Part shown: positions 695 to 51,911 of the stretch, piece after piece
Numbering within the stretch: the stretch's first letter is position 1
Layout: each line of letters opens with the position of its first letter
NCBI GenBank assembly: GCA_035221665.1
Contig: CM069139.1
Coordinates: 2,790,001-2,854,000 of the forward strand
DNA length: 64,000 nucleotides
Direction: 5' to 3'
Source of the DNA: Okamejei kenojei
Lineage: Eukaryota
Made by a program: the position numbers and the translations under genes
Notes under the pieces: model-generated
The model's input: only the letters and a program-made list of their open reading frames with translations
Told to the model about the DNA's origin: nothing
The model's database searches: none

Positions 695-1600
695 ATAGAC
701 TATAGGTGCAGGAGGAGGCCATTTGGCCCTTCGAGCCAGCACCGCCATTCACTGTGATCATGGCTGATCATAGTTCCTGCCTTCTCCCCATATCCCCTGA
801 CTCCACTATCTTTAAGAGCCCTATCTAGCTCTTTCCTGAATGCCAGAGAATTGGCTTCCACTGCCTTCTGAGGCAGAGAATTCCACAGATTCTCAACTTT
901 CTGGGTGGAAATCATCTCTGTTCTAAGTGGATTGCCTCTTATTCTGAAACTGTGGCCCCTGGTTCTGGACTCGCCCAACATCGGGAACCTGTTTCCTGCC
1001 TCTATCTTGTCCAAACCCTTAATAATCTTATATGTTTTCATAAGATCCCCTCTCATCTTCCTAAATTCCAGAGTATACAAGCCCAGCCACTACATTCTAT
1101 CAACATATGACAGTCCCGCCATCCCGGGAATTAACCTTGTAAACCTACGCTGCACTCCCTCAATAGCAAGAATGTCCTTCCTCAAATTTGGAGACCAAAA
1201 CTGCACACAATATTCCAGGTGTGGTCTCACTGGGGCCCTGTACAACTTTGCTAATGTTACTTTTAATCCCTTCATCAAAATCATTAATGTATATTGTAAA
1301 TAGCTGCGGTCCCAGCACCGAGCCTTGCGGTACCCCACTAGGCACTGCCTGCCATTCAATACAATACAATACAGTACAGTACAATATGTTTTATTCCTCA
1401 CATTGCACATGAAGTGCAAGTGAAATGAATTTGTAAGGGACCGGTTTATCCCTACTCTTTGTGTCCTGTCTGCCAACCAATTTTCTATCCATGTTAAGTA
1501 TTTTATGTTTCTATATAAGATCCCCTCTCATCCTCCCAAATTCCAGTGAATACACGCCCAGTCGACCCATTCTTCCATCATACGTCAGTCCCGCCATATA
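695..1600 (-). mobile_element. Rearranged CR1 3' fragments in a POMT2 intron
   Basis: ORFs [32 protein letters not shown]; internal deletions and an (ACAAT)n insertion. Confidence 0.88.
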
Positions 1601-1778
1601 ATGAAGGAATGGGCCGACTGGGATTGTACGTGACTCTGATGACCAAGGAGGTTGGAAATGTCGTCAAAGAGAACTATAAACCCTATATAAAGTTTAGAAA
1701 GATGAAATGGGATAGGTCCTTTGTTATTGTTTAAAGCTTGTCCAGCAGGGATCACATTTGTTTTTATTCCATCTGCAG

Positions 1779-1890
1779 CTATTACTTGGCACATTGTGCT
1801 GCAAAGTTCAGACCTCCTGTTAAGCCATCAAGCAGCTGAGAGAGTTTACACTGGGGGAGTGATGTGCTTGACCATCTTCTGCATCTACAG
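1779..1890 (+). CDS. POMT2: POMT2 penultimate coding exon
   Basis: atctgcAG acceptor and AG|GTGAGC donor. Translates ITWHIVLQSSDLLLSHQAAERVYTGGVMCLTIFCIYS. Phases are compatible with the flanking exons. Confidence 0.88.
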
Positions 1891-2142
1891 GTGAGCATGG
1901 ACTCGACAAAAACACTGGAATGTTATAGTTCCAGACCAATGCAACATGCAACCGTGCAGACTGAGCTAGATGCTGCACCTCTCCTTTATCCCATATCCTT
2001 CTAAACCTTTCCTGTCTAAATGTCTTTTAAATGTTGTATTGTCCTGCCCCAGCTACGTCACCAGCAGCTGGTTCCTTGTACCCACCACCCTCTGAATGAA
2101 AGGCTTGGCCCTCAATTCCTATAAATGAGTCTCTTGCATCCA

Positions 2143-2410
2143 TCTTATTTTAGAGTTTCCAGATACAGTCCACACCGACCAGGGATCCCCGTATACTAGC
2201 ACTATCCAACACACTAGGGACAATTTTATAAATTGTACCAAAGCCAATGCTCCTACAAACCTGTATGTCTTGGGGGTGTGTGAGGAAACCAAGCACCCAA
2301 AGAAATCCCATGCTGTCACGGGGAGAATGTACAAACTCCGTACAGACAAAACCTGTAGTCAGGATCAAACCTGGTGCTGGAGCTGTGACTGCTGTGTCAC
2401 TGTGCCACCC
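2143..2410 (-). mobile_element. tRNA-derived V-SINE (HE1-like)
   Basis: GGTGGCACAGTG box-A-like head, GGTTTGATCC box B and a V-core-like GAGTTTGTACATTCTCCCCGTG. Confidence 0.75.
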
Positions 2411-2617
2411 TCTCGTTACATAAGAGCCCAGCACAAGAAGTAACAACAGCCAAGACCAACTCATGATCCGTATCGCTGGATGCTCGTGCCTCTGCCATGA
2501 AGAACAATATAGCACAGAAACAGGCCCTTCCGCCCATAATATCTGTGCCGTCTCCTTCCACTCCAAAAGCCTCTTGAATGCCACAATCATGTTGTTACTA
2601 ATTAGTGATAAATCTGC

Positions 2618-2708
2618 AGTACACAAAATGCTGGAGAAACTCAGCGGGTGCAGCAGCATCTAAGGAGCGAAGGAGATAGGCGACGTTTCGGGTCGAGACC
2701 CTTCTAAA
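2618..2708 (-). mobile_element. Short Penelope-type 3' fragment with a 14-bp TSD
   Basis: AGTGATAAATCTGC is duplicated at 2604-2617 and 2709-2722. The insert matches the 3' end of the GIY-YIG element at 55552-56148. Confidence 0.8.
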
Positions 2709-2994
2709 AGTGATAAATCTGCTGTCCCTGGGCACAGAGAAGTTGCATCCACAAACTGCATGTTGGCCACTAGCCAGAGTTGCTTTAACAACACCTCTCA
2801 AAGCTACCTCATTTGGTCAAATAAACCACCAAAAGAAAACTGGGATAATGATCTTTATTCTTTAATCATTTGCCAGCCCAACGCCAGCCACTGTTGTCCT
2901 TCCCTCCCTCCCTCCTCCCCTCCTCCCCAAGACTGTACCAGACCGTGATGCACGGGGCTGCCAATCTACAGGTGATGATTGTTTCTTGTTCCAG

Positions 2995-3100
2995 CTTCTA
3001 CCTGTTCCATCCTCTGTCCTACGGGACGATCGGTCCTCACGCTCAGGACCCCCTCAGTCCAATGGCAGGGTTTGATGTGGATGGAGTGCTGGAATTCTGA
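2995..3100 (+). CDS. POMT2: POMT2 terminal coding exon
   Basis: ttgttccAG acceptor. Translates SFYLFHPLSYGTIGPHAQDPLSPMAG...EF*, resembling the POMT2 C-terminus [34 protein letters not shown]. Confidence 0.93.
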
Positions 3101-17354: not shown

Positions 17355-20300
17355 AACATCACACACAGCAACACAACAACACACACACAACCACAGACAA
17401 CACACAGACGCACGCCACACCACGACACAGACTGCACACCAACACACCACAACACCACACACACAGACACACACAGACACACACACACACAGGACAACTC
17501 AGCAACGAGACACACACACACCACACACACGCACCACAAGGAATACCAGAACGCACCGACACACAACTCACACACAACAGACACACACACACACACCCGC
17601 GACAACAACACCGACTGCATCCACCACACACCACAGACCACACCTCAGACCAAAGACACACACGTGCACACGCCAACACACGCACCACACAACCCACACA
17701 CAGAATAGACGTCACACCACAGACGACACTCCCACATACACACCACACACACACACACACTGAGACCAGCCACACACAGACCGCACGCACGCACACGAGA
17801 CAGATACTTGCACACACAGACACACACACGCTAGCACAACGCAGCTCAGCAACCATACCACACAACACACACGTCCCCAGACACACCAAACTACACACAC
17901 ACAAGACCAACGCGAACGCACACAACTTACAAAATACAAACACCACGCACACTACGCACACCCACAGACACACACACACACCGCAGACACACACACACAG
18001 TAACACACTACAGCTCACACACAGAAGAAACCCAAATGACAGAAACTGACACCAACAGACCTGACCAACCCAACATAAAATGCTCAACTACACGACAGAA
18101 CGCCCAGACCGCGCACACACACACAACAGACGAGACTGCACACTACAGATCACACAGACACACACAATACAGGACCACAGCGATAGACACACACACCACA
18201 CACACGACTCACACAAACACAGACAACCCACGCGCACACACAGACACCGACGCACGCGGCACAAGACACACAGACCCACACACACCCGCACAAGTAGGGC
18301 TTAGCAGACACACGTGGGCCCAGAACGTTCACCCACACAAACACACACAGACAACACACAATCACACACGACAGGAACACAATCACACCCAGGTGCGCAC
18401 ACGGACATTACACAGACAACAGAACCAAANNNNNNNNNNNNNNNNNNNNNNNNNNNNNNNNNNNNNNNNNNNNNNNNNNNNNNNNNNNNNNNNNNNNNNN
18501 NNNNNNNNNNNNNNNNNNNNNNNNNNNNNNNNNNNNNNNNNNNNNNNNNNNNNNNNNNNNNNNNNNNNNNNNNNNNNNNNNNNNNNNNNNNNNNNNNNNN
18601 NNNNNNNNNNNNNNNNNNNNNNNNCACAGGACACACACAGAACAAGAACAGACACAGAACACACACAGACACACATACACGCACACACACACGGAAGACA
18701 ACAACACACACACTAGACACAAACACAGACAACACACTACACAACACACAACGACACACTAGAAGGAACACACAAAAACACACCAGAACACACACACACA
18801 CGGAAAGACGATGAAGCCACAACGACATTCACAACGCGACACACAGACAGCACACGACCAGCAGCACCACACGCACACACACAACACACACAATAACCAC
18901 AAGGCGCCACACACCCAGACCCACACACAGACACATACACACCACCAAACCCAAACACACACAACAACAACACCACACAGACACACAAACACACAGACAC
19001 ACACCTCACAGACGTGGGGGTGGGGACACACACACAAAGGACACACACTATACTACACCACACAAGAACAGCACACACCGCGCGGTGACACTTTGAACAC
19101 AGACCACGCACGACACACAACACACACAACACAGACGCACGTGCACACACACCAAAACACAAACTCATAACCACACCACACACACAGCACCACACCACAC
19201 ACACAACATGCAGATGCAACCACAGACGCACGTCACTCCGACACTACCGCCTCACACACATACACACGCACATCACACACACACACAACACACGCATCGC
19301 ACACACACTACACACACGCGCACCTACACGACACAGACTCGTCACGACGACACGGAACGCACGCACACACACAGAACCCGCACACGAGACACACACTCAC
19401 AGAACGCACACACAAACACCCGACACACTGGACACACGCAAACGACCAGCAACGTACGACACACACAACACTCACACACTAAGTGTACACAGACACGCAC
19501 GCACTCCCACACCCTCACAGACCCAACGAGGACAGACACATACACAGACACACCTCCCAGACAAACACGACTGTCCCCAGACCCACCATAAAACCCACGC
19601 CCCAGACCCATCGCCCCGACTCCACGCCACCACAGACACACGCCCCAAACACACGCACACAGACACATGCCCAGACAACCCTCCCACAGTCCGGCATACA
19701 CACGTCCCAACACACGTCCCCAGACACAACACACACAGACTGCACAGCACACGCCAACACAGAAACCACACACAGACACAAAACCCACATTCCCCACAAC
19801 GTGCACACGCCACCACAAACACACCCACAGAAACACGCCACACAGACACACGCCCCACAACACAACCCCCATGTCAGACACACTACCACAGAAGAGCACA
19901 CACACGTCGCCACACCCCACACACACACACACACGTCCCAGACACACGCTCACAGACACCCACACGCCCAGGCAGACCACACACCTACACACACAGGACC
20001 CACGCACTACACACACACGCACACAAACACAGACACAAACACACACACACACACACACACCACACACAGAACCAACACTCACAACACAACCACTCACTGG
20101 AAGTGTTTGTGGTGAGGAATTGGCTCGTGTCTGTATTTCCTTCGGATTTGGGAGGATCATCCAATGTTCGTGCCACCTGGAGGAAGCAAAAGCCAGACAC
20201 AGCAGACCCACGCCCCAGATTACCAGCACCTGTAACTCAACAAACTAAGCCCACTGGCCCCAGACACACGTCCCCACTGACACACGCCGCCGGCCCACAG

Positions 20301-20560
20301 ACACGCTCTCCCGCAGAAACGCACAACGCCGCCCAGAACCCCACGCCCCACAGGACGCACAACGCACCCCCCACAGACACACGAGCCCCAGAACACAAAC
20401 GACCCACAGGTCCCAGACACACGTCACCCCAGACACACAAACTTCCCCCAGACACACGACCCCGAGACACACGCCCCAGACACACGCCCCAGATGCACGT
20501 CCAAGACACACGCCACCACACAAAACGCAAACGCCCCAGACAGTCCTCAACAAGCTAAAA
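17355..20560 (+). repeat. CA-rich low-complexity and minisatellite tract (includes a 195-N gap at 18430-18624 and TMEM63C exon 8)
   Basis: Units such as (CA)n and CCCAGACACACG. Confidence 0.9.
20098..20176 (-). CDS. TMEM63C: TMEM63C coding exon 8 (error-containing)
   Basis: cctccAG acceptor, VARTL-MI...PKEI..D....TKHF, GTGAGT donor. Resembles [24 protein letters not shown]. Confidence 0.8.
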
Positions 20561-21087
20561 AAACTACACGACACGAGAAAAGCCGCATTAGCCCAGACCC
20601 AACTGGGCAGAGGAGGGCGGGTGCCCAGGGAGCCATGGTCAGGGGTCATTAGTAGGGAACATCTCTACAGGGGAAGGCAGTGACCAAAGGGCACAGTCAG
20701 AGCCCAGGGTAGGAATGAGAAAGACTAACTACAAGATACGGATCTTCCAGGCGAAGGGCGAAGAAAGAAGTGTGTTTACACAGAGGTGGTGGGAGCCCGG
20801 AAGGTGCAGCCAAGGGTGGGGGTGGAGGCAGATACCAGGGTGGTGGTTTGAGGCTTTTCTATTCTTCTTTTCTATCTAGGGGTTGATTGGACATGCAGGG
20901 AGTGGAGATATGATCACGAGCAGGTAGACAGGTGATGGTCACGGGACGTTGAGAGTATCGCGGGTAGTTCGCGAGCCTGTGACTCTTGCGTGTACTGTTC
21001 CGTGTTGTATGTTTTTAATGCATGTTGCGAGCAAGTGTAGTTTGTGGTGTGGTCGGAGAGGGACCAGCCCGTCTGCTTCCCTCTCAC

Positions 21088-21203
21088 CTTCTCATTCTCT
21101 TTGTAATCGATGCTGCAGCGAGAAGGTGGCCCATACAAACCACGGTCACCACAAAGTAGAGGAGGGCAAAGATACTGATAGTGTAGCCACAGCAAGCGGT
21201 CCA
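21088..21203 (-). CDS. TMEM63C: TMEM63C coding exon 7 (error-containing)
   Basis: DRLLWLH..SIFALLYFVVTVVCM...IDYKENEK; gtcgcAG acceptor and GTGAGA donor. Confidence 0.85.
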
Positions 21204-21402
21204 CTGCGACAACACAGAGAGGTTGAGGAGAGAGAGGGGGGATGCTCAGCGCAACAGGGGCACAAGGGAGGGGGCTGGCAGTGGGGGCGGTGGTGGGGAG
21301 GGGGGGGCAGGAAGGCAGGGGAGGCAGGGGAGGGGCACTGGTGCGGGGGGGGGGGGGCGGACGTTGGACAGTCTGTCCGGACTCGGACGTTCACAAGCTC
21401 CC

Positions 21403-21459
21403 TCTGCAGGGACGTTTGGCGATGGATGTTCGTTCCGAAAAGTGCTGGGGGCTGTCCAC
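21403..21459 (-). CDS. TMEM63C: TMEM63C coding exon 6 (error-containing)
   Basis: ctccAG acceptor. DSPQHF..RTSIANVPAE is readable across indels (compare the family motif FGRTTIAN). Confidence 0.72.
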
Positions 21460-21633
21460 CTGGAGCAGGAACCATGCCGTCAGTGAGAGACCCCTCCTCT
21501 CTCAACAGAGACTCACCCACCACCCCCCCCCCCCTCCCTCCTACGCAGCCCACCCTGCCAAACCCCAACACCCACACCACCCCTCTTCCATCCCCACACC
21601 ACTATGTTGCCATGCCCCCCCCCTCCCCCTCAC

Positions 21634-21778
21634 CCAGCAAGTCCCCGGAGAAGTTGAGGGCGGGAGGAATGATGCGAGGAGAAGACACAGACCACACTCT
21701 CAACTCCCAGGATTGTGTCTCTGGAACGACAGGTAGATGATGGCGTCCAGCCCACACTTGTACTGGATCTCATCATCC
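21634..21778 (-). CDS. TMEM63C: TMEM63C coding exon 5 (frameshifted in this assembly)
   Basis: DDEIQYKCGLDAIIYLSFQRH...NFSGDLLG is readable across indels. Donor GTGAGG is intact; the acceptor reads TG, probably a base error. Confidence 0.85.
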
Positions 21779-21924
21779 CAGCAAGACAAGGGCGCCCAGG
21801 TCACTGCCACAATCACATGCCTCCAAACAGCACCACCACCCCCCCGCCTGTACCCCCACCCTCACACCCCCCGCCCGTTATTCACACCCCCCTCCCCACC
21901 ACTGTCCCAGACTTGTACAAGAAG

Positions 21925-22244
21925 GATCCCAACTTCCCTGTAACAACAAGAAGCGCCAGTAGGCTGGGTGGGCCGAGGAGCATTTTTCTCGTTCGGGAGA
22001 AGTTTCATGACCCACACCAACTCTCACGGAACTACCTGAATTTTTCACATATTGTGTAAAGATATTATATAAATCATACCTGAAACTCGTCAAGACCAAA
22101 ACATTTTTTTGAAATATGGGAAAAACTTCCAATTTTCCGAGTAGCAATTGTCCAATCAATGCACGTTTGACATTGAGGTCGGACGCAAATTGACCAATCC
22201 CGCGCTTTGTTTTATGGTCGCCAGGCAGGGAGAACTCTGGGATC
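21925..22244. mobile_element. Putative MITE
   Basis: Inverted ends GATCCCAACTTCCCTG / CAGGGAGAACTCTGGGATC. Confidence 0.45.
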
Positions 22245-23238
22245 ATGGCGGCCTCCTCATTACATCAAAACAATAGCAAGGTTTCCAAGGAATAAAGGTA
22301 ATTCTAATGCTGGGATTAGGGTCAGGGTTATGGTCAGGGTCAGGCTCTGTCGGTCGGGCTTGTCGGTAGGCCGATGGATGCTGTCGGTCCACTGGTGGGT
22401 GGTGAGTGGCCGGGCCGCCGGTGGATGGTGAGAGTGGTCGGTCGGGCTGCCACTCGGCCGGTGGGTGCTGCGAAGGGTCAATCGGGATGTCAGGCGGCCG
22501 GTGTTGCAGCGAGCGTGCAGGCGGACTGACGGAGCCGGCGCTATGGGCAGCGTGCAAGGCAGTGCTGCTCCCCACCATCATCACCACCACGATCCAGGAG
22601 GGCACGCTGGCCGAGGTGGGCTCGCTGAACGGCCACACGTACAGAGCCCGCAGCCGGTCCCAAGTCGGCTCCAGATCCAGCCGTGGGCAGCTCTGGAAGG
22701 GGGGGCGAGTTAGGGTTAGTATAGGGTTAGGCAATTTCCTCTCAGTGGAAGATGCCTTAGCGTTCCCCCAGCCTGGCACTGCCCCAGTCCCACTATGGCC
22801 ATGACCCCCACTCTGCACACTGGCAGTCAGTGGGGTTCAATAAATGGGGGAACCCAGAAGAACTTCCCTCACCCATTAATTAGGCTGGTTCAGGAGCCAG
22901 ACCTCTGCGGCAGTCTCATTCAAAAAACAAACACAATTATATTAATTACTAGACTAAGTGGGACCCGTTGGGGCCCATGTTCACACAGAAGGGCTGGTCC
23001 ACTAACGCAATATTCCACATCTCCACCAATTCCAATATTGGTGGCTAGTGGGGGGGAGGCTTTCTGGAGCATTAGTATGTGTTGTGGGCTGAAGGGACTG
23101 GCTTCCAGAGGGCTAGTATGGACATTGTGGGCAAAATGGAGTCTTTGGGTGGCAGTTCAGTCACTCAAGCCTGATGTGGTGGCAGCTCACTCACGGCTGG
23201 TGGGTTGGCAGTTGACTCACGGGTATTCCTTGATATTC

Positions 23239-23620
23239 CATTTCAAGCAGGGTGCAAGGCCACCAAACTCATGCAGTTTACGACCACTTCAAGCAGGGTG
23301 TAAGGCCATCGAATTCAAGTGCAGTTTCATACCACTTCAAGCAGGGTGCAAGGCCAATTAATTCAAGTGCAGTTTCATGCCATTTCAACCAGGGAGCAAG
23401 GCCACCAAATTCAAGTGCAGTTTCATGCCATTTCAAGCAGGGTGCAAGGCCACCAAATGCAAGTGCAGTTTATTCCCATTTCAAGCAGGGTGCAAGGCCA
23501 CCAAATTCAAGTGCAATTTCATGCCATTTCAAGCAAGGTGCAAGACCACCAAATTCTGGTGCAGTTTATTGCCATTTAAATCAGGGTGCAAGGCCACCAA
23601 ATTCAAGTGCAGTTTCATAA
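23239..23620 (+). repeat. 48-bp minisatellite (about 8 copies) inside the Helitron-like element
   Basis: Unit CATTTCAAGCAGGGTGCAAGGCCACCAAATTCAAGTGCAGTTTCATGC. Confidence 0.95.
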
Positions 23621-30648: not shown

Positions 30649-31012
30649 CTGCAGACAGAACAAAGCCACGCTCAGAAATCCACAACTCAAAGTGAAGACA
30701 CAGCTCAGGTAGTTCAGCAACAATGAAATGATTGTAAAGGAGTCTCACATTCACTGGGGTGACCTGTTCAAAGTTCCCGGGACTGGTGGGGTCACACCGG
30801 GCTTATAGGGATCTCTGGGATGGAGGAATGGGACAGGTGTATGCAGCTGGGATGGCCAATCTCCCTGGACTGGGACAGGTGGGTTCACACCTGGGATATA
30901 GGGATCTCTGGGATATAGACCCCACTCGGCCAAGGAATGGGACAGGTGTAGGCAACAGGGATCATCAATCCCCTTGGACTGGTACAGGCGAGGGCAGAGG
31001 CAGGAGATTGAT

Positions 31013-31254
31013 CTGCACCAGCACCCTGCACCAGCACACTGCACCAGCACACTGCACCAGCACACTGCACCAGCACACTGCACCAGCACACTGCACCAGC
31101 ACACTGCACCAGCACCCTGCACCAGCACCCTGCACCAGCACCCTGCACCAGCACCCTGCACCAGCACCCTGCACCAGCACACTGCACCAGCACCAGCACA
31201 CTGCACCAGCACACTGCACCAGCACACTGCACCAGCACACTGCACCAGCACACT
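31013..31254 (+). repeat. 13-bp minisatellite GCACCAGCAC(A/C)CT
   Basis: About 18 near-perfect copies. Confidence 0.97.
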
Positions 31255-31393
31255 GAGAAACAGGCCCTCCAGCCCAACTCATCCATGCTGCCCAACATGC
31301 CCCATCTATGCTGCTCCTATTTCCCACAGTTGCTCCATATCCTTCTAAACCTTTCCGATTCATGTGCCTGGCCAAATGTCTTTTAAACGTTGC

Positions 31394-32281
31394 AGCATGG
31401 AGCCACATCACAGTCCCAGCATGGAGTGATCACACAGCCCCAGCATGGAGTGATCACACAGCCCCAGCATGGAGCCACATCACAGTCCCAGCATGGAGCC
31501 ACCACACAGCCCCAGCATGGAGCCACCACACAGCCCCAGCATGGAGTGATCACACAGCCCCAGCATGGAGTGATCACACAGCCCCAGCATGGAGTGATCA
31601 CACAGCCCCAGCATGGAGCCACATCACAGTCCCAGCATGGAGCCACCACACAGCCCCAGCATGGAGTCACATCACAGCCCCAGCATGGAGTCACCACACA
31701 GCCCCAGCATGGAGCCACCACACAGCCCCAGCATGGAGCCACCACACAGCCCCAGCATGGAGTCACATCACAGCCCCAGCATGGAGCCACCACACAGCCC
31801 CAGCATGGAGTCACATCACAGCCCCAGCATGGAGCCACCACACAGCCCCAGCATGGAGTCACATCACAGCCCCAGCATGGAGCCACATCACAGCCCCAGC
31901 ATGGTCACATCACAGCCCCAGCATGGAGCCACATCACAGCCCCAGAATGGAGTCACATCACAGCCCCAGCATGGAGTGATCACACAGCCCCAGCATGGAG
32001 CCACATCACAGTCCCAGCATGGAGTCACATCACAGCCCCAGCATGGAGTGATCACACAGCCCCAGCATGGAGCCACAACACAGCCCCAGCATGGAGCCAC
32101 CACACAGCCCCAGCATGGAGCCACCACACAGCCCCAGCATGGAGCCACCACACAGCCCCAGCATGGAGCCACCACACAGCCCCAGCATGGAGCCACCACA
32201 CAGCCCCAGCATGGAGCCACCACGCAGCCCCAGCATGGAGCCACCACACAGCCCCAGCATGGAGCCACCACACAGCTCCAG
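31394..32281 (+). repeat. 24-bp minisatellite CAGCATGGAGCCACCACACAGCCC
   Basis: About 37 copies with a few variant types. Confidence 0.97.
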
Positions 32282-32534
32282 TTCCTACAACACTGTCCAC
32301 GCCAAACACCCATCAAACACCCATTGATGCCAGGACTAAAGCAGGAGCTCTGGATCTGTGAGGTAGCAGCAGCATCAGCCCCTTTCCTTGAGGAACGATC
32401 TCAATCACAAAACATTAACTTCTCTTCCCACAGATGCAGCCTCTCCTGCTGAGACCTCCCAGCATTCTCTATTTTATCTCAGATATACAACATCTGCACT
32501 ATTTTTGCTGGGTCAGTTGATGAGAGATAGAGTT

Positions 32535-39454: not shown

Positions 39455-40215
39455 AATAGACAATAGGTGCAGGAGGGGGCCATTTGGCCCTTCGAACCAG
39501 CACCGCTATTCAATGTGATCATGGCTGATCATCCCCAATCAGTACCCCGTTCCTGCCTTCTCCCCATATCCCCTGACTCCGCTATCTTTAAGAGCCCTAT
39601 CTAGCTCTCTCTTGAAAGCATCCAGAGAACCTGCCTCCACCGTCCTCTGAGGCAAAGAATTCCACAGACTCACCACTCTCTGTGAGAAAAAGTGTTTCCT
39701 CGTCTCCGTTCTAAATGACTTATTCCTTATTCTTAAACTGTGGCCCCTGGTTCTGGACTCCCCCAACATCGGGAACATGTTAACTGCCTCTAGCGTGTCC
39801 AAGCCCTTAACAATCTTATGTGTTTCAATGAGATCACCTCTCATCCTTCTAAACTCCAGCGTGTACCAGCCCAGCTGCTCCATTCTCTCAGCATATGACA
39901 GTCCTGCCATCCCGGGAATTAACCTCGTAAACCTATGCTGCACTCCCTCAATAACCAGAATGTCCTTCCCATAATTAGGGGACCAAAACTGCACACAATA
40001 CTCCAAGTGTGGTCTCACTGGGGCTCTGTACAACTGCAGAAGGACCTCTTTGCTCCTATATTTGGTTCCTCTTGTTATAAAAGCCAACATGCCATTCGCT
40101 TTCTTCACTGCCTCCTATACCTGCATGCTTACTTTCATAGACGGATGTACAAGGACCCCCAGACCCCATTGTACTTCCCCTTTTCCCAACTTGACGCCAC
40201 TTAGATAGTAATCTA
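39455..40215 (-). mobile_element. CR1 3' fragment
   Basis: 189-aa RT C-terminal ORF and 3' UTR. Confidence 0.92.
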
Positions 40216-40502
40216 AATAGTAATATATAGTAATCTGTCATCGAGGATCCATACCATCCAGGCCATTGCTACAATTGGATAGGAGGTGGAGAAGCCTGCG
40301 GACCAACATCACCATGTCCAGGAACAGCCACTTCCCTGCAGCTATTGGGTTTTGTATCGACCCACACAATCCTAAACCATGCTGACTATTCCTAACCAGC
40401 CCCATCAATACATCCTATGTCAGAATACTCTCTAGCAGGGCTGCCAATATTGGGTGAGAGTTGGGTGAGAAATTGCGAGACCAAGTCAGAGGGAGCATAG
40501 CG

Positions 40503-40559
<57 letters not shown>

Positions 40560-42491
40560 GGAGGGTGTGTCCCTCCCATTGGTACGGAACTTTTGCATTT
40601 TTCAGGTTGAAATTGTGTAATATGGCGCATACTGTAGCGAGTCTTTAACTTACACTTGAATGCAATATTAAAATTTGTACACTTGATTGCAATATTAAAA
40701 CTTAAAATTGGATTAGCTATGAATAAGGTTAGAGTAAATTACATTCCTAATTACATTCCACAGTAGAGCCCAGGCTCTGATCCATACGTGCAGCACATGA
40801 ATGATCTTAGTGTATTCATGTATGGAAATCAGATTATAATCAAACACTTGGCCCATGTTGGCCAACCTGGGTCTCACTGCACACCTGGTACTACTCCTGG
40901 CCCTGACTCCAGTTGCATACCTTCTCTCATTCCTGTCCCTGAGTCCAGCCCTACACCTAGCCCCCTATTCTACCCTGATCATAGCTGCTTACCTGCTTAG
41001 GTTCCCAGTGCTGAACACACCCCTGGTCCTAGCTTTGACTGCACGCCTAGTACTATTCCAGACCTTGACTCTGGATGCACACTGGGCCTTGCTCCTAGCC
41101 CCTTTGCACTGACAATATATCTGGCCCACACATAAAGCCCCATATCTGACCCCCTGGACTTAACCTATTACGTTCAAGTCCACAGGTGCTTAGCTAATGC
41201 AGTAATCCTTTATGGGGCACTTCACAGACCAGATTATGGATAACAACATTTGCTACATTCATTGTCTTCCTTGTTATCTAACATGCTAGTCACTTTGTCA
41301 AAGAAGTCATCAATTGGTTGAACACAATTCCCATCCATAAAATTATACTCACTCAGCTGTATAAGTATTCCGATACCATTTCTTTCATTTTCGTAACAAA
41401 CTGTCCTGAAGTCATCAGGCTAATTACAAATCAATAACATTAGCCAACTCCGAAACATGAAGCGCTGAGCATTGGGATCTAAACATCATGGACAACTGGC
41501 CTCAGTTCCCTGCTCACATCTGGCAGTATTCTCCATCTGAACCAGGGGCCGCGGAGCGTTTTTGAAAGTGGGGAGGCTGAGCGATCACTGATCACTGGCC
41601 TTGGGGGCACCCGGTGAGGGAGTGGAGCAACCGAGTGGGGAGAGGGTGTGGAAGAAGGGTGTCCCCCCTCCCAGGGTAGGAGGAACTTTTTGAAATTAGA
41701 TGTATTAAAATCATGTTTTCGTGCATTGTAGAGGTTTGATTTCAATGTTTTTTGTATGAAGTATTTTTAAGAAGTAACTTTTTAAGGGGTAACTTTATCC
41801 ACACAAAGGGTGGTGGGTGTGTGGGACAAGCTGCCAGGGGAGGTAGTTGAGGCAGGGACCATCCCAACATTTAAGAAACAGTTAGACTGATACATGGATA
41901 GGACAGGTTTGGAGGTATGGACCAAAAGCAGGTAGCGTAGCTGGGACATGTTGGCGGGTGTGGGCAAGTTGCGCTGAAGGGCCTGTTTTCACACTGTATC
42001 ACTCTATGACCACATTATACCTCCACCATGCATGAATGCTTCAAAATCAAGTGATCGAGTTTTATTGCCAAATACTGAAGCATAGAGACGTAGAAAATAG
42101 GTGCAGGAATAGGCCATCGGCCCTTCGAGCCAGCACTGCCATTCAATATGATCATGGCTATTCATCTAGAATCAGTACCTCTTTCCTGTTTATTCCCCAT
42201 ATCCCTTGATTTTGTGAGCTAAATGTAACTCTCTCTCGAAAACATCCAGTGAATTGGCCTGCACTGCCTTCTGTGGCAGAGAATTCCACAGATTCACAAC
42301 TCTCTGTGTGAAGAAAGTTTGTCCTCATCTCAGTCATAACTTGACCCCTGGTTCTGAACTCCCCCAACATCGGGAACATTTTTCCTGCAGTTACAGTAAG
42401 TGAAAATCTAGCAGGCACGCAGGATGCTTTCTCCAACCACCCCCATTTGTCCGCTGTATTCCACCGTTTCTACCCAGTGCCTGGTACTTAC

Positions 42492-42629
42492 TTGCAGCAG
42501 CCACTGGTTGTCCTCCAGGATGCACCGAGCCGCAGCCTGATCCATGCCGGTCACCTGGGCAAATTTGGCACAGAGACTCTCACGGCAGCGGCGCAACACT
42601 TCCGACGCCTTGCACTGAGGCTGCTCCAT
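42492..42629 (-). pseudogene. TDP2: Captured TDP2-like exon 1 (UBA-like domain) inside the hAT element
   Basis: GCCATGG start; translates MEQPQCKASEVLRRCRESLCAKFAQVTGMDQAAARCILEDNQWLLQ; phase-0 GTAAGT donor. Resembles the TDP2 N-terminus RRLLCVEFASVASCDAAVAQCFLAENDWEME. No downstream TDP2 exons were seen. Confidence 0.7.
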
Positions 42630-42873
42630 GGCCGGACCTGCCGTGAGCGACTCGCCAGCCCGGCAAACCCTCGCCAGCCCCGCTCCCCGTCTGCATCTGT
42701 CCCCGTCGCTGCTTCTGCTTCCAACTCCCATGGCCCATGCAGTTGATATGAGTTTCGAAATTTTCGTTGATCACAGAATTTCTCAAGACAGAGCGTGAGA
42801 AATTAGTGATCAGCGTGAGAATTTGGCGAAATGCGTGATTCTCACGCTCAGTGCATGGGAGTTGGCAGCCCTG

Positions 42874-43645
42874 CCTCTCTATCCCCCTCTCAATCTCTCC
42901 CCTTTCCCTCTCTCTCCCACCTCACTCTCCCCCCTCTCTCTTGTCCCCCTCTCTCCCTTCCCCTCTCCCCTCTCTTTCCCCTAACTTCTCTCCCCACTCT
43001 CTCCCCCTCACTTCCTCCCTCTCTCCCTCCCTCCCTCTCTTTCTCCTCTCTCCCCTTTCTTCCTCTCTCTCCCCCTCTTTCTTCTCTCCCTCTCTCCTCT
43101 CGCTCCCCCTATCCCTCTCTCTCCCCCTCGCTTCCCCCTATCCCTCTCTCTCTCCCACTCTCTATCTCTTTCTCCCTCCCTATCTATCACCCCCTCTCTC
43201 TCCCTCTCCCTCTCCACACTCTCTCCTCTCTCTCCCACCTCTCTCTCTTCCCCCTCCCTCTCTGCTCTTCTCTCATCCTCTCTCCCCCTCTCTCTCCCCC
43301 ATTTCTCCACCTCACTCTACCCCTTGCTCTCTCTCCCTGTCTCTTTCTCCTCTGTCTCTATCTCCTATTTCTTTGCCCCCCATCTCCCTCTCTTTCCCCC
43401 ATTTTTCCCTTTCCCCCTTCCCCCTGTCTCTCTTCCCCCACCCCCACTCCCATTCTCTCCTCCCACTCCACCCCCTCTCTTTCTTCCCTCTCACCCCTCT
43501 CTCTCTTTCCCCCCCTCTCCCACCTCACTCTCTCCCCTCTCTCCCCCCCCTCCCCTCTCCCCAGTCACTCTCCCCCCTGTCTCTCCTCTCAGCCCCTCTC
43601 TCTCCCCTCACTGCCTCCCTGTCTCCTTCCCCTCTCCCACCGCCT
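42874..43645 (+). repeat. CT-rich polypyrimidine tract inside the hAT element
   Basis: Almost pure C/T over about 770 bp. Confidence 0.9.
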
Positions 43646-43850
43646 CCCTTTGAGAGTCTCTGTCCCATCGGCACGCTTCCAACGCCTCCGACGGCCCGGG
43701 ACTCTTGCACTGCTCCATGGCCGGAGCTGCAGCGAGCGACTCGCAGGCCCCGCAAACACTCGGCAGCCCCGGCTTTCTGTCCGCATCTGTTACACCTGCT
43801 TCCAGCCCTCCCTCAGCCCCGCTCTCCAACACCCGCGGACCATGCAGTTT
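43645..43850 (-). pseudogene. Second, truncated copy of the TDP2-like 5' region
   Basis: Homologous to 42570-42750 (APAMEQ..SPGPSEALEA); truncated by the CT-rich tract. Confidence 0.6.
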
Positions 43851-45744
43851 ATCTGAGTTTTGACATTTTCGTTGATCACAGAATTTCTCACCACAGAGCG
43901 TGAGAAATTTCTGATCAGCGTGAGGGCGTGAGAGTTTCTTCAAATGCCTGATTCGCATGCTCAAAGCGTGAGAGTTGGCAGCCCTGCTCTTTAGTCACGT
44001 AACTACCACAGATGGTAGGCTCATGGCCTGTAGTTCCCAGCCTATTCCTGCAGCCCTTCTTGAATAGAGGTACATCAGTCACCCTCCAGTCATCCATGTC
44101 TAATGAGGATTGATATATTTCAGCCAGGGCTCCTGCAACAATGCTGGAGCTTCCCTGGATATATGGCAGACTTCACCACCTTCATGCATCTGAGGATGAT
44201 CACTGGCTACTTCTTGCACTATTGTGGACTTTATTCTAACTATGTTTGGCACTAATGTCTTTATCTAGTCTGAAGAAGGGTCTCGACCTGAAACGTCACC
44301 CATTCCTTCTCTCCAGAGATGCTGCCTGTCCCGCTGAGTTACTCCAGCACATTGTGTCTATCTTTGGTTTAAACCAGCGTCTGCAGCTCTTTCCTACACG
44401 TCTTTACTTTGCAGTCTGTTTTCTTTGTTACTGTCTTGCATTACTTTTACTGTGTAATTTCTGTATCATTTATGTTTTTGTGGATATGACGTTGCTGCAA
44501 GATTTGCAGCGTATCTGTACTTCCCCGTACACCCACATGACCATGAGGCTGGGCTGACTGGACCGTATCTGTAGCAGTGTCTGAAACTGCCCGCACAGGT
44601 CTGTGCCTCAATGCATGGGGGTCAGCTGGCCGGGGACTGAGTGTGCTGTCTGTGCTTCAATGCGCAGTGGTCATGTCGTGGGGAACTGACCACACAGGCC
44701 TGTGCCTCAGTGCATGGGGGTCATCTGGCCGGGGACTGTGCTTCAATGCGCAGTGGTCATGTCGTGGGGAACTGACCACACAGGCCTGTGCCTCAGTGCA
44801 TGGGGGTGCTTTGGCCAGGGACATTCACACAGGATCGCATTTCTTCCAGCACACTGGCAGAACTTTACAGGGATGATATCTGTCATTTCTCCGGTGCTTC
44901 GAGATCTCTGCGGTAGGTAGTCCAAATTTCAGAAATAGACAGGAAGACAAAGGCCAGAACATGGAACAGTCCAACACAGGATCAGGCCCTTCGGCCCACA
45001 ATGCACGTTCCGGACATGATGAAAGGATCGATGCTGCCCACAAGATGATGAGCTTTGTGCCAGGTCTCAGGCCATTGTCATACAGCACAGAAAGAGGCCC
45101 TTTGGCCCCACCATGTTGATGCTGACCCTTTATATTCATCCCATTTCCCAGCACGGTCCAGGTTTGCAGAATGGCAGCGCTGAAGGCATTGATGAATTTC
45201 ATCATCGATGTCTGCCAACGTTGTAAGTGGTCCCAAGATCTGCAGTTCTTGGTTTCCAGTTGTTCAATGGCCCTTGGGGCACATGGGGCCAGGAGATGGA
45301 CGGATCCATGATCAGTGTGTGTATCATCTCCTGGATGGGCAAAGCAGAAGAGGAGCCGTGTTTGCTGTCTAATGTTGTCTCTGCAATGTTAGTGCAGCTG
45401 TAGAGAGCATTAAGCAAATGCACTGGTGGCACTGAGCCAATGTGGCTGTGGGCTCTTTCATCTCTCTGTGTCCAGCCCTGGTCAGGAACGGTGATTGAAG
45501 CAACAATGAAGTGCCTCAGGGAGCTGCACACAACCACACCCACACCCAACGCCAATCACTCTCTGCACATTCAAGATTCATTTGCCTCAAGTCATTCACT
45601 CTCTTGTGCCAACAATGATTTGTGTGGGAATATTCACACGCAGACTGAAGGCTCAAACACTCAAACAGGGACCAAGGAATAAAGTCTCTTTCATGTCTCC
45701 ACTCTTAACCCTCCTCAAGCCACCGGCAGATCGAGGAGAAAGAC

Positions 45745-50307: not shown

Positions 50308-51036
50308 CATAGATTATCTCTACTTCCCTTCTAAAACAAAGGCAAAACTTCTTGCTTCATTCTGAATATCTTTTCCTTCTAAACATTCCTCGCATTTCCC
50401 ACGTGAAAGATATTTGCCGTCCACCCCATTATTGGAGCTTGCACTCACTTGTCGAAGCCTCAGCAATGCCCAGTGCCGATTCATAACAACTCAAAGACGC
50501 TCCGCCTTACAACTGGGACAGCTCGATGTTGGGCGAGAGGGGAAGATTGAACAGGAACGTGAGGGACAGCTTGTGGTGTATGGAACCAGCTGCCAGAGGA
50601 GGTCGTGGGGGCAGGTACTCTAACAGCTTTTAAAATTCATTTGGACAGGTACATGGATAGGAAAAGTTTAGAGAGATATGGGTGAAACAAGGGCAAATGG
50701 GACTAGTTTAGATGAGGTATCTGGGTTGGATTGGACCAGTTGGGTGGAAGGGTCTGTTTCCGTGATGCATGACTCTGGGAGCTGCAGATACTGAGCAGGT
50801 GTGGCTGAAACACAGGCAGCAAAGAGCCCTGGGGCCATGGCTGGGACCAGTAGAACACAGAGCTGACCACGTGATGGGGAATGTACGGTTTATATAACTC
50901 CTTTTAGTCAGTTTAGAAATACAGCAGGGACATGACCATCGATCACTCCTTTACACTAGTTCTCGTATCCACTTTCTCATCCACTCCCTACACACTCGGG
51001 GCATTTACTGAGGCCAATTAACCTGCGGGAGCACCC

Positions 51037-51668
51037 GGAGGATACCCATGTCACTGGCGCTGTGAGACAGTGGCTCCACTGGAGGACACCCATGTCACTG
51101 GCGCTGTGAGGCAGTGGCTCCACTGGAGGACACTGGCACTGAGACAGTGGCTCTACTGGAGGACACCCATGTCTCTGGCGCTGTGAGACAGTGGCTCCAC
51201 TGGAGGACACTGGCACTGAGACAGTGGCTCCACTGGAGGACACCCATGTCTCTGGCGCTGTGAGACAGTGGCTCCACTGGAGGACACTGGCACTGAGACA
51301 GTGGCTCCACTGGAGGACACCCATGTCTCTGGCGCTGTGAGACAGTGGCTCACTGGAGGACACTGGCACTGAGACAGTGGCTCCACTGGAGGACACCCAT
51401 GTCACTGGCGCTGTGAGGCAGTGGCTCCACTGGAGGACACCCATGTCTCTGGCGCTGTGAGACAGTGGCTCCACTGGAGGACCCTGGCACTGAGACTGTG
51501 GCTCCACTGGAGGACACCCATGTCACTGGCGCTGTGAGGCAGTGGCTCCACTGGAGGACACCCATGTCTCTGGCGCTGTGAGGCAGTGGCTCCACTGGAG
51601 GACACTGGCACTGAGGCAGTGGCTCCACTGGAGGACACCCATGTCTCTGGCGCTGTGAGGCAGTGGCT
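51037..51668 (+). repeat. Compound 44/33-bp minisatellite abutting a truncated V-SINE (about 50905-51050)
   Basis: Units CAGTGGCTCCACTGGAGGACAC + CCATGTCTCTGGCGCTGTGAGA or + TGGCACTGAGA. Confidence 0.95.
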
Positions 51669-51911
51669 GCCATTCACTGGTGTAACAGCAGAGTGCGCGG
51701 TCACTGGAAGGGATCGAGTGGCCGCATCGCCAGCTGCTGCTGCTGCAGGGGCTCTGCAGCCTCCTCCCTCCCAGCAGACGGCTCGGTCACAACAGGGAGC
51801 AGGGACAACTGAAGCCCAAATGACCACACTTCTTGCCTCTAACCCATGCTTAAACTCATAGACAGGCTATTCAGCGGGGAGCCCAGCCCAGTTTGTACAT
51901 CAGCAACTCAC

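Follow-up and report, generated by a model that had tools for sequence, protein, structure and literature searches.

A high-copy transposon family in the skate Okamejei kenojei carrying exon 1 and part of intron 1 of TDP2

The window analysed here is a stretch of 64,000 nucleotides from the skate Okamejei kenojei (GenBank assembly GCA_035221665.1, contig CM069139.1, positions 2,790,001 to 2,854,000, forward strand). At 40436-43986 it holds a DNA transposon without a recognisable transposase, inserted into a fragment of long interspersed nuclear element (LINE) reverse transcriptase (RT), and inside the transposon there is a short CpG-rich exon which by its matches corresponds to the first exon of TDP2, followed by intron sequence. 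The exon is found at hundreds of dispersed sites in the genome, in elements that have their ends in common, and the intact TDP2 gene lies on another contig.

The element and its insertion site

The 12-bp terminal inverted repeats (TIRs) are exact at both outer ends of the element (Table 1). Allowing at most one mismatch, the motif was matched 4 times in the window against 0.5 expected, and none of 100 shuffles reached 4. A third exact copy marks an inner right end, and the element therefore has two right ends with a CT-rich tract between them. The target site duplication (TSD) is 8 bp long, 7 of the 8 positions being identical. Joined across the insertion, the flanks read at the peptide level as one continuous RT fragment, which we take to be of CR1 type from its peptide pattern rather than from a family search.

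A genome search with the left flank returned four paralogous copies of the split LINE, three of which hold an empty site. Two of them (L071 and L074) have one CTCTCTAG followed directly by sequence like the right flank, and the third (L072) has one variant site, CTCTCCAG. Considering that the paralogous LINE copies show a single-site empty target, the 8-bp TSD is the right reading for the window copy. The fourth paralogue (L073, C9:2926298 region) has a short local duplication at the target site, which stands twice around 10 extra bases; either an excision footprint or a small tandem duplication would account for this.

Inside the element, the observed/expected ratio of CpG was 0.7-0.8 at 42400-42900 and 0.06-0.4 elsewhere in 40400-42400. 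The CpG-rich part contains the 46-codon frame that runs up to a GTAAGT donor. No transposase-like open reading frame (ORF) was recognised by eye among the ORFs listed in 40000-44500, the Pfam scan being of the exon frame only. An earlier note on this DNA had described the perfect TIRs, the TSD with one mismatch, the RT fragment that becomes continuous on excision, the lack of a transposase and the CpG-rich exon with its donor, and all of these were found again; it had placed the outer ends correctly and overlooked the inner right end and the second piece of exon 1. A genome search with 40850-41350 returned close copies only and no source, and no credible protein match was obtained for this segment (best atlas score 0.82); an open Pro/Ser/Thr-rich frame of 103-153 aa is present there (40841-41356) in 10 of the copies checked. 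The segment that resembles an element end (41543-41785) is preceded on its 5′ side by the same sequence in almost every occurrence that was fetched, and the intron part has ~90 bp of extra sequence near 42005-42095.

Table 1. Features of the transposon copy and its insertion site (window coordinates).
Feature	Position	Strand	Basis or remark
Left part of the split CR1-like LINE RT fragment (insertion target)	40330..40427	-	flank reading, paralogous copies
Left target-site copy, 8 bp	40428..40435	+	flank reading, paralogous copies
Left TIR, 12 bp	40436..40447	+	exact motif match
Left arm of the carrier	40436..40840	+	common to sister elements without TDP2; subterminal word GGGTGAGA twice, plus a G run
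Internal segment	40841..41356	.	fixed in the TDP2 subfamily; no protein match; source not found
TIR-like end, possibly of a second element	41543..41785	+	fixed in the family; putative element end
Captured TDP2 intron 1	41785..42491	-	~640 bp of host sequence including nested repeats; donor GTAAGT at 42491-42486
Captured coding part of TDP2 exon 1	42492..42629	-	46 codons, ATG to donor; UBA-like domain; open
5′ part of captured exon 1	42630..42736	-	matches host N-terminal extension and start region
Inner right arm	42770..42873	-	exact TIR at 42862-42873; fixed subfamily structure, without its own TSD
CT-rich simple-sequence spacer	42874..43650	+	length differs between copies
Additional piece of TDP2 exon 1 (5′ half, second copy)	~43650..43830	-	truncated and diverged
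Outer right arm, ~92 bp	43896..43986	-	GCGTGAGA subterminal words; exact TIR at 43975-43986
Right target-site copy, 8 bp	43987..43994	+	one mismatch; flank reading, paralogous copies
Right part of the split CR1-like LINE RT fragment	43995..44172	-	ORFs, flank reading, paralogous copies

Elsewhere in the window, a CpG-rich stretch unmatched by the fetched repeats and several minisatellite arrays were seen (19000-23300, 30700-32450, 44551-44821 and 50980-51870).

The exon and its parent gene

The 46-aa peptide matched the Pfam family UBA_4 above the cut-off (E=2.2e-5), and its top match in PDB was TDP2 (6q00_B, E=4e-4). Compared with skate TDP2 the values were 72% for Leucoraja and 38/54 for Amblyraja, that is, around 70%. 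By these matches, and by the same exon border, the peptide is assigned to the UBA-like domain of TDP2 and the cargo to a derivative of its exon 1. This agrees with the identity proposed earlier, and a peptide akin to some other protein, or to none, is excluded by the best match.

An intact host TDP2 gene is located on another contig, C2, at 145.913-145.942 Mb (ATG at C2:145913232, end at 145941822). Its exon 1 (C2:145913232-145913501) has no flanking TIR, and the exons from residue 56 onward follow in order at C2:145920006-145941822, 81-98% identical to skate TDP2. The nearest family copy ends ~17 kb upstream of exon 1, on the opposite strand. We also considered whether the elements could represent a functional TDP2 paralogue, and this was rejected: the exons of the catalytic EEP domain do not lie downstream of element copies, all 113 scored matches for residues beyond exon 1 in a genome search with skate TDP2 falling on C2:145.7-145.97 Mb.

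Window positions 42736-41785 are collinear with C2:145913221-145914142, with 713 of 821 ungapped columns identical (87%). Both begin with exon 1, the donor and ~100 unique intron bases, after which they have nested repeats in common, arranged alike. The shared stretch, ~930 bp of host sequence in all, takes in exon 1 and ~640 bp of intron 1. This is the parental locus, collinear through exon 1 and intron 1, that a capture predicts. The match to the host sets in only ~10-20 bp ahead of the host ATG, so a capture of the promoter from TDP2 is not clear.

The host exon itself has changed. Of 203 aligned columns, 22 combine G/C in the host with A/T in the family majority, 7 of them in host CpG context, and the reverse was found at 1 site. 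The MEQPQ start residues of the element are common to the TDP2 of Amblyraja, Leucoraja and Rhinoraja, and the methionine, also present in sawfish and stingray TDP2, is lost from the host exon. Taking into account that these residues are kept in other skates, and the methionine in sawfish and stingray, most of the change in the exon is likely to have occurred on the host lineage after the capture. The polarity is not uniform, because at one site (Thr versus Met before the DQAA motif) it is the host that agrees with the outgroups. GC-biased gene conversion may lie behind the shift, and host exon 1 is a possible hot spot of this process. The GC content of host exon 1 is 78% (C2:145913221-145913520, L044).

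Other particularities of TDP2 were observed. Host intron 1 (C2:145913501, 145920003) has GC at the homologous donor border, and a GT/AG pair that could be used instead is found 4 nt further downstream; either the intron starts with GC or its two splice sites have each shifted by 4 nt, and the frame is kept in both cases. The region is part of a tandem segmental duplication (C2:145.69-145.76 Mb and 145.87-145.97 Mb, offset ~180-185 kb), in which the 5′ region of TDP2 is present again, with a frameshift, at 145726600, and the last exon has three additional copies, at 145731333, 145757057 and 145967605. The family copy upstream of TDP2 was duplicated along with the gene region. In Amblyraja there is a TDP2-like protein without the UBA domain (P0014).

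A dispersed family with mixed target site duplications

A 21-mer of the exon has 866 exact occurrences in the genome, including the one in the host gene. For the left end, a 23-mer has 1240; the reversed-pattern control gave 0 in each case. Divergence from the family majority, in a sample of 60 copies, has a median of 5.4% (range 2.7-9.0), and for this reason exact words undercount the copies; as a rough estimate, those bearing the TDP2 piece would total 1,500-3,000. On contig C1 the exon lies inside the element in 15 of the first 40 left ends, and many other left ends there show the same arms around different interiors, L161, L162, L173 and L181 being examples without the cargo. Since elements with both arms hold different interiors, a cargo-free carrier family exists, whose ends are common to the TDP2-bearing elements.

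Among the first 60 exon matches, 55 have the intron word, 58 have GT and 33 have the full GTAAGT consensus; a right-arm TIR was found within 800 nt in 37, in 17 of these of the inner type seen in the window copy. Two subfamilies can be distinguished: the donor is GTAGGT in the first, while the second combines GTAAGT with a doubled right end, and the tree suggests that the first is the older. Open frames of the element type are present in Logan and ENA records (P0002, P0003, P0009 and P0015). Four sister elements without TDP2 (L174, L184, L186 and L188) have at least two right ends and GC-rich sequence by the right arm, and may carry other captured gene starts. In another family copy, a transposase fragment of Harbinger-like pattern is nested downstream of one and upstream of the other of two landmarks, the exon and the inner right end (L190:3580-4485, reverse strand).

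TSDs were scored in 58 re-fetched elements with a left end, of which 48 had a right end in range. Five whose last end was the inner right end were dropped, leaving 43 complete elements. An exact TSD of at least 5 bp was present in 25 of the 43 and in 8 of 1806 mismatched pairs. Its length was 7 bp in 12, 6 bp in 10, 5 bp in 2 and 8 bp in 1, so that 22 of 25 are 6 or 7 bp and the 8-bp TSD of the window copy is an outlier in its own family. The canonical hAT duplication of 8 bp (nTnnnnAn) read earlier from this one copy does not extend to the family.

The state of the coding frame was evaluated in 60 copies, chosen by their order along the genome; CpG changes, other transitions and transversions were given separate rates. 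For the UBA frame, omega was 0.92 (p=0.38) and 1.26 (p=0.87), and rare changes per base were 0.025 in the exon core and 0.027 in the intron. The UBA frame thus decays neutrally, as shown for this sample. The ATG, an open in-frame exon and the GT donor are kept together in 26 of the 60 copies, and the upstream anchor is absent in 12.

Origin, mobilisation and meaning of the family

The unit is bounded by TIRs, its interior derives from a host locus that is not flanked by the element, the intron points to capture at the DNA level, several copies have distinct TSDs and the carrier exists without cargo; judged on sequence, it is a multicopy Pack-TIR. We assign a probability of roughly 0.88 to the following reading: a high-copy non-autonomous DNA transposon holding TDP2 exon 1 and part of intron 1 from genomic DNA, moved by a likely hAT-like transposase from elsewhere, with the exon likely a neutral passenger. 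The carrier family exists with and without the TDP2 piece, the ends being the same. The piece adjoins the right arm and reads inward, and because intron sequence with the nested repeats of the host is kept, it came from DNA and not from mRNA. A single capture at a carrier element may have taken place by template switching or gap repair, which have been modelled for multicopy Pack-TIRs (PMC8277862), and would be ancestral, since the copies keep residues common to three other skates and lost from the host gene. The loaded element has moved many times, acquiring its own TSD in each copy, and has formed subfamilies, one with the doubled right end. The enzyme would act in trans and may belong to a short-TSD hAT lineage (Blackjack/hAT5/hAT6), and the coding frame, in the sample of copies, decays neutrally.

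A retrocopy, a misassembly or a single segmental duplication of TDP2 exon 1 could also place the exon outside its gene, and the TDP2 region does have a tandem segmental duplicate ~185 kb upstream. Against these origins, the intron and the donor are kept and no downstream exons follow, there are 866 dispersed matches and distinct TSDs at distinct sites, and the host exon 1 is present at its own locus. These origins, ruled out by copy count and TSDs, have a negligible probability. The proposal of the earlier note, that a non-autonomous TIR element captured and moved genomic, intron-containing TDP2 sequence, is borne out by the collinear intron, the copy number and the dispersed copies with the same TIR and different TSDs. 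A single-copy cassette, or the true exon 1 misassembled here, is excluded, the true gene being elsewhere and the cassette high-copy, and the empty sites looked for as a further check are present in paralogous CR1 copies. What did not hold was the picture of a rare event: the family is large, and its right end is composite and doubled.

Several points weigh against the capture and transposition reading. In 23 of the 60 exon matches there is no TIR within 800 nt, and an exact TSD is absent in 18 of the 43 elements, several of which have one at 1 mismatch. L159 and L160 resemble a local duplication, so some copies may have spread by duplication. The collinear intron is mostly made of common repeats, the collinearity depending on the ~100 unique bases after the donor and on the shared order of junctions, and the capture junctions are placed approximately, not to the base. 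A naive pN/pS of 0.37-0.52, in a sample biased to close and protein-like copies, suggested purifying selection; this was rejected, the signal being gone with context-aware rates in an unbiased sample. Finally, among 80 fetched hAT-transposase stretches, some overlapping, obtained by Pfam searches with PF05699 and PF14291 in which 150 candidates each were scored, none had the family TIR with its subterminal words or matching ends, and consequently the hAT label of the family is inferred only. A TIR-variant pattern gave 28 matches, and no transposase-like ORF was seen in the 20 that were read.

Short TIRs beginning CAGGG together with short subterminal repeats fit hAT elements, and the 12-bp TIR of this family is of this kind. 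A fixed 8-bp TSD, as in canonical hAT elements of the Ac/Buster/Tip100 type, is not a feature of the family, 1 of 25 exact TSDs being 8 bp; TSDs of 5-8 bp with short TIRs fall within the hAT superfamily when hAT5, hAT6, hAT7 and Blackjack are included. Assignment to hAT6 was rejected, 7-bp TSDs (12) being as common as 6-bp ones (10). Considering that there are hAT groups whose TSDs measure 5, 6 or 7 bp, those with 5 and 6 bp in the Blackjack lineage (PMC12730594), it is probable that a short-TSD hAT partner mobilises the family. Like hAT5, hAT6, hAT7 and Blackjack (PMC12730594, PMC9004415), the skate family has TSDs shorter than 8 bp and short TIRs; those groups have one TSD length each, whereas the skate family mixes 6 and 7 and comes without a transposase by which to place it. 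That spread of lengths, together with the lack of a partner among the 80 stretches, leaves room for a carrier from another TIR superfamily or an undescribed lineage with mixed 6/7-bp duplications, not hAT. The described short-TSD groups and the form of the ends speak against it, and Pfam-seeded searches limited to 150 scored candidates each may miss divergent hAT lineages; we hold such an origin to be unlikely. A separate hAT family with a transposase was also found (L196, L197, L198, L201, L204, L211 and L212), its copies ~90% alike and its ends, which begin CAGGGCCGG, unlike those of the TDP2-carrying family.

Capture by such elements has been held to be much less documented in vertebrates than in plants, and this needs correction: a survey of 100 animal genomes records 370 Pack-TIRs, 208 of them hAT, vertebrate cases included (Tan et al. 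2021, PMC8277862). Almost all were single-copy by-products of repair and 4 were multicopy; the elephant shark, the only cartilaginous fish found in its supplement, had 0. Pack-hAT-N8_XT of Xenopus tropicalis is, like the skate element, a non-autonomous TIR element with host 5′ gene sequence, a distant parent gene without TIRs and distinct TSDs indicating repeated transposition. It has 3 copies with 291 bp of CAPSL 5′ UTR (PMC8277862). In the skate, by contrast, there are at least 865 copies besides the host gene, ~930 bp of host sequence and a coding exon that includes its ATG and splice donor; the right end is doubled, and TSDs of 6 and 7 bp are mixed. Ssk-FB4 of Drosophila also holds intron-containing coding sequence in a TIR element, but there are 4 copies of it and they hold nearly the whole gene, the TIRs are long, the TSDs measure 9-10 bp and selection is in evidence (PMC8277862), where the skate element has one exon, short TIRs and neutral decay. 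Plant Pack-MULEs, too, are TIR elements with intron-containing coding sequence (cited in PMC8277862). The nearest match in scale and content is HelibatN3 of Myotis, which holds NUBPL exon 1 together with part of intron 1 and has about a thousand copies (PMC4224331); it is a Helitron, moved by rolling circle without TIR or TSD and with the promoter included, whereas the skate element has TIRs and TSDs and no clear promoter capture. Against the published animal examples with 3-4 copies each, as far as these sources cover them, the skate family has more than 100 times the copy number. No report of a TDP2-carrying skate transposon was found in the literature searched, Repbase and Dfam being outside the search.

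It is possible to ask whether a share of the copies serve as portable first exons, splicing the UBA-like domain or a start codon to downstream host exons. With at least 866 copies many would lie in or near genes, and the donor and frame counts given above (33 and 26 of 60) speak for it; an SGSM3 transcript that includes a fused bat Helitron with NUBPL exon 1 has been reported (PMC4224331), and chimeric RNAs are a frequent product of Pack-TIRs (PMC8277862). Three sequence runs read for splicing resembled genomic contigs and contained no informative joint. On the other hand, omega is ~1 across the sample, open frames are to be expected in 46-52 codons at ~5% divergence, the TDP2 promoter was not clearly captured and the window copy sits in a dead LINE in a repeat-rich window, among whose ORFs of at least 130 aa no host exon was recognised (short exons being possible). 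We regard such use as doubtful. With similarly low confidence, one may picture a TIR family, possibly of an undescribed short-TSD lineage, that scattered a cassette of start codon, UBA-like domain and consensus splice donor to thousands of sites, some copies acting as alternative first exons of unrelated proteins, and that preserved the ancestral exon against the 22-to-1 shift of the host.

These copies will confuse annotation, read mapping and the design of primers and guides for skate TDP2. At the same time they provide a dated outgroup for the change in the host exon. The family shows that TIR elements are able, in a vertebrate, to multiply a coding exon together with its splice donor at the scale of plant Pack-MULEs and bat Helitrons, and it opens exon shuffling by DNA transposons to a direct test in such an animal, with hundreds of independent insertions of one cassette, each of which can be scored in RNA data.

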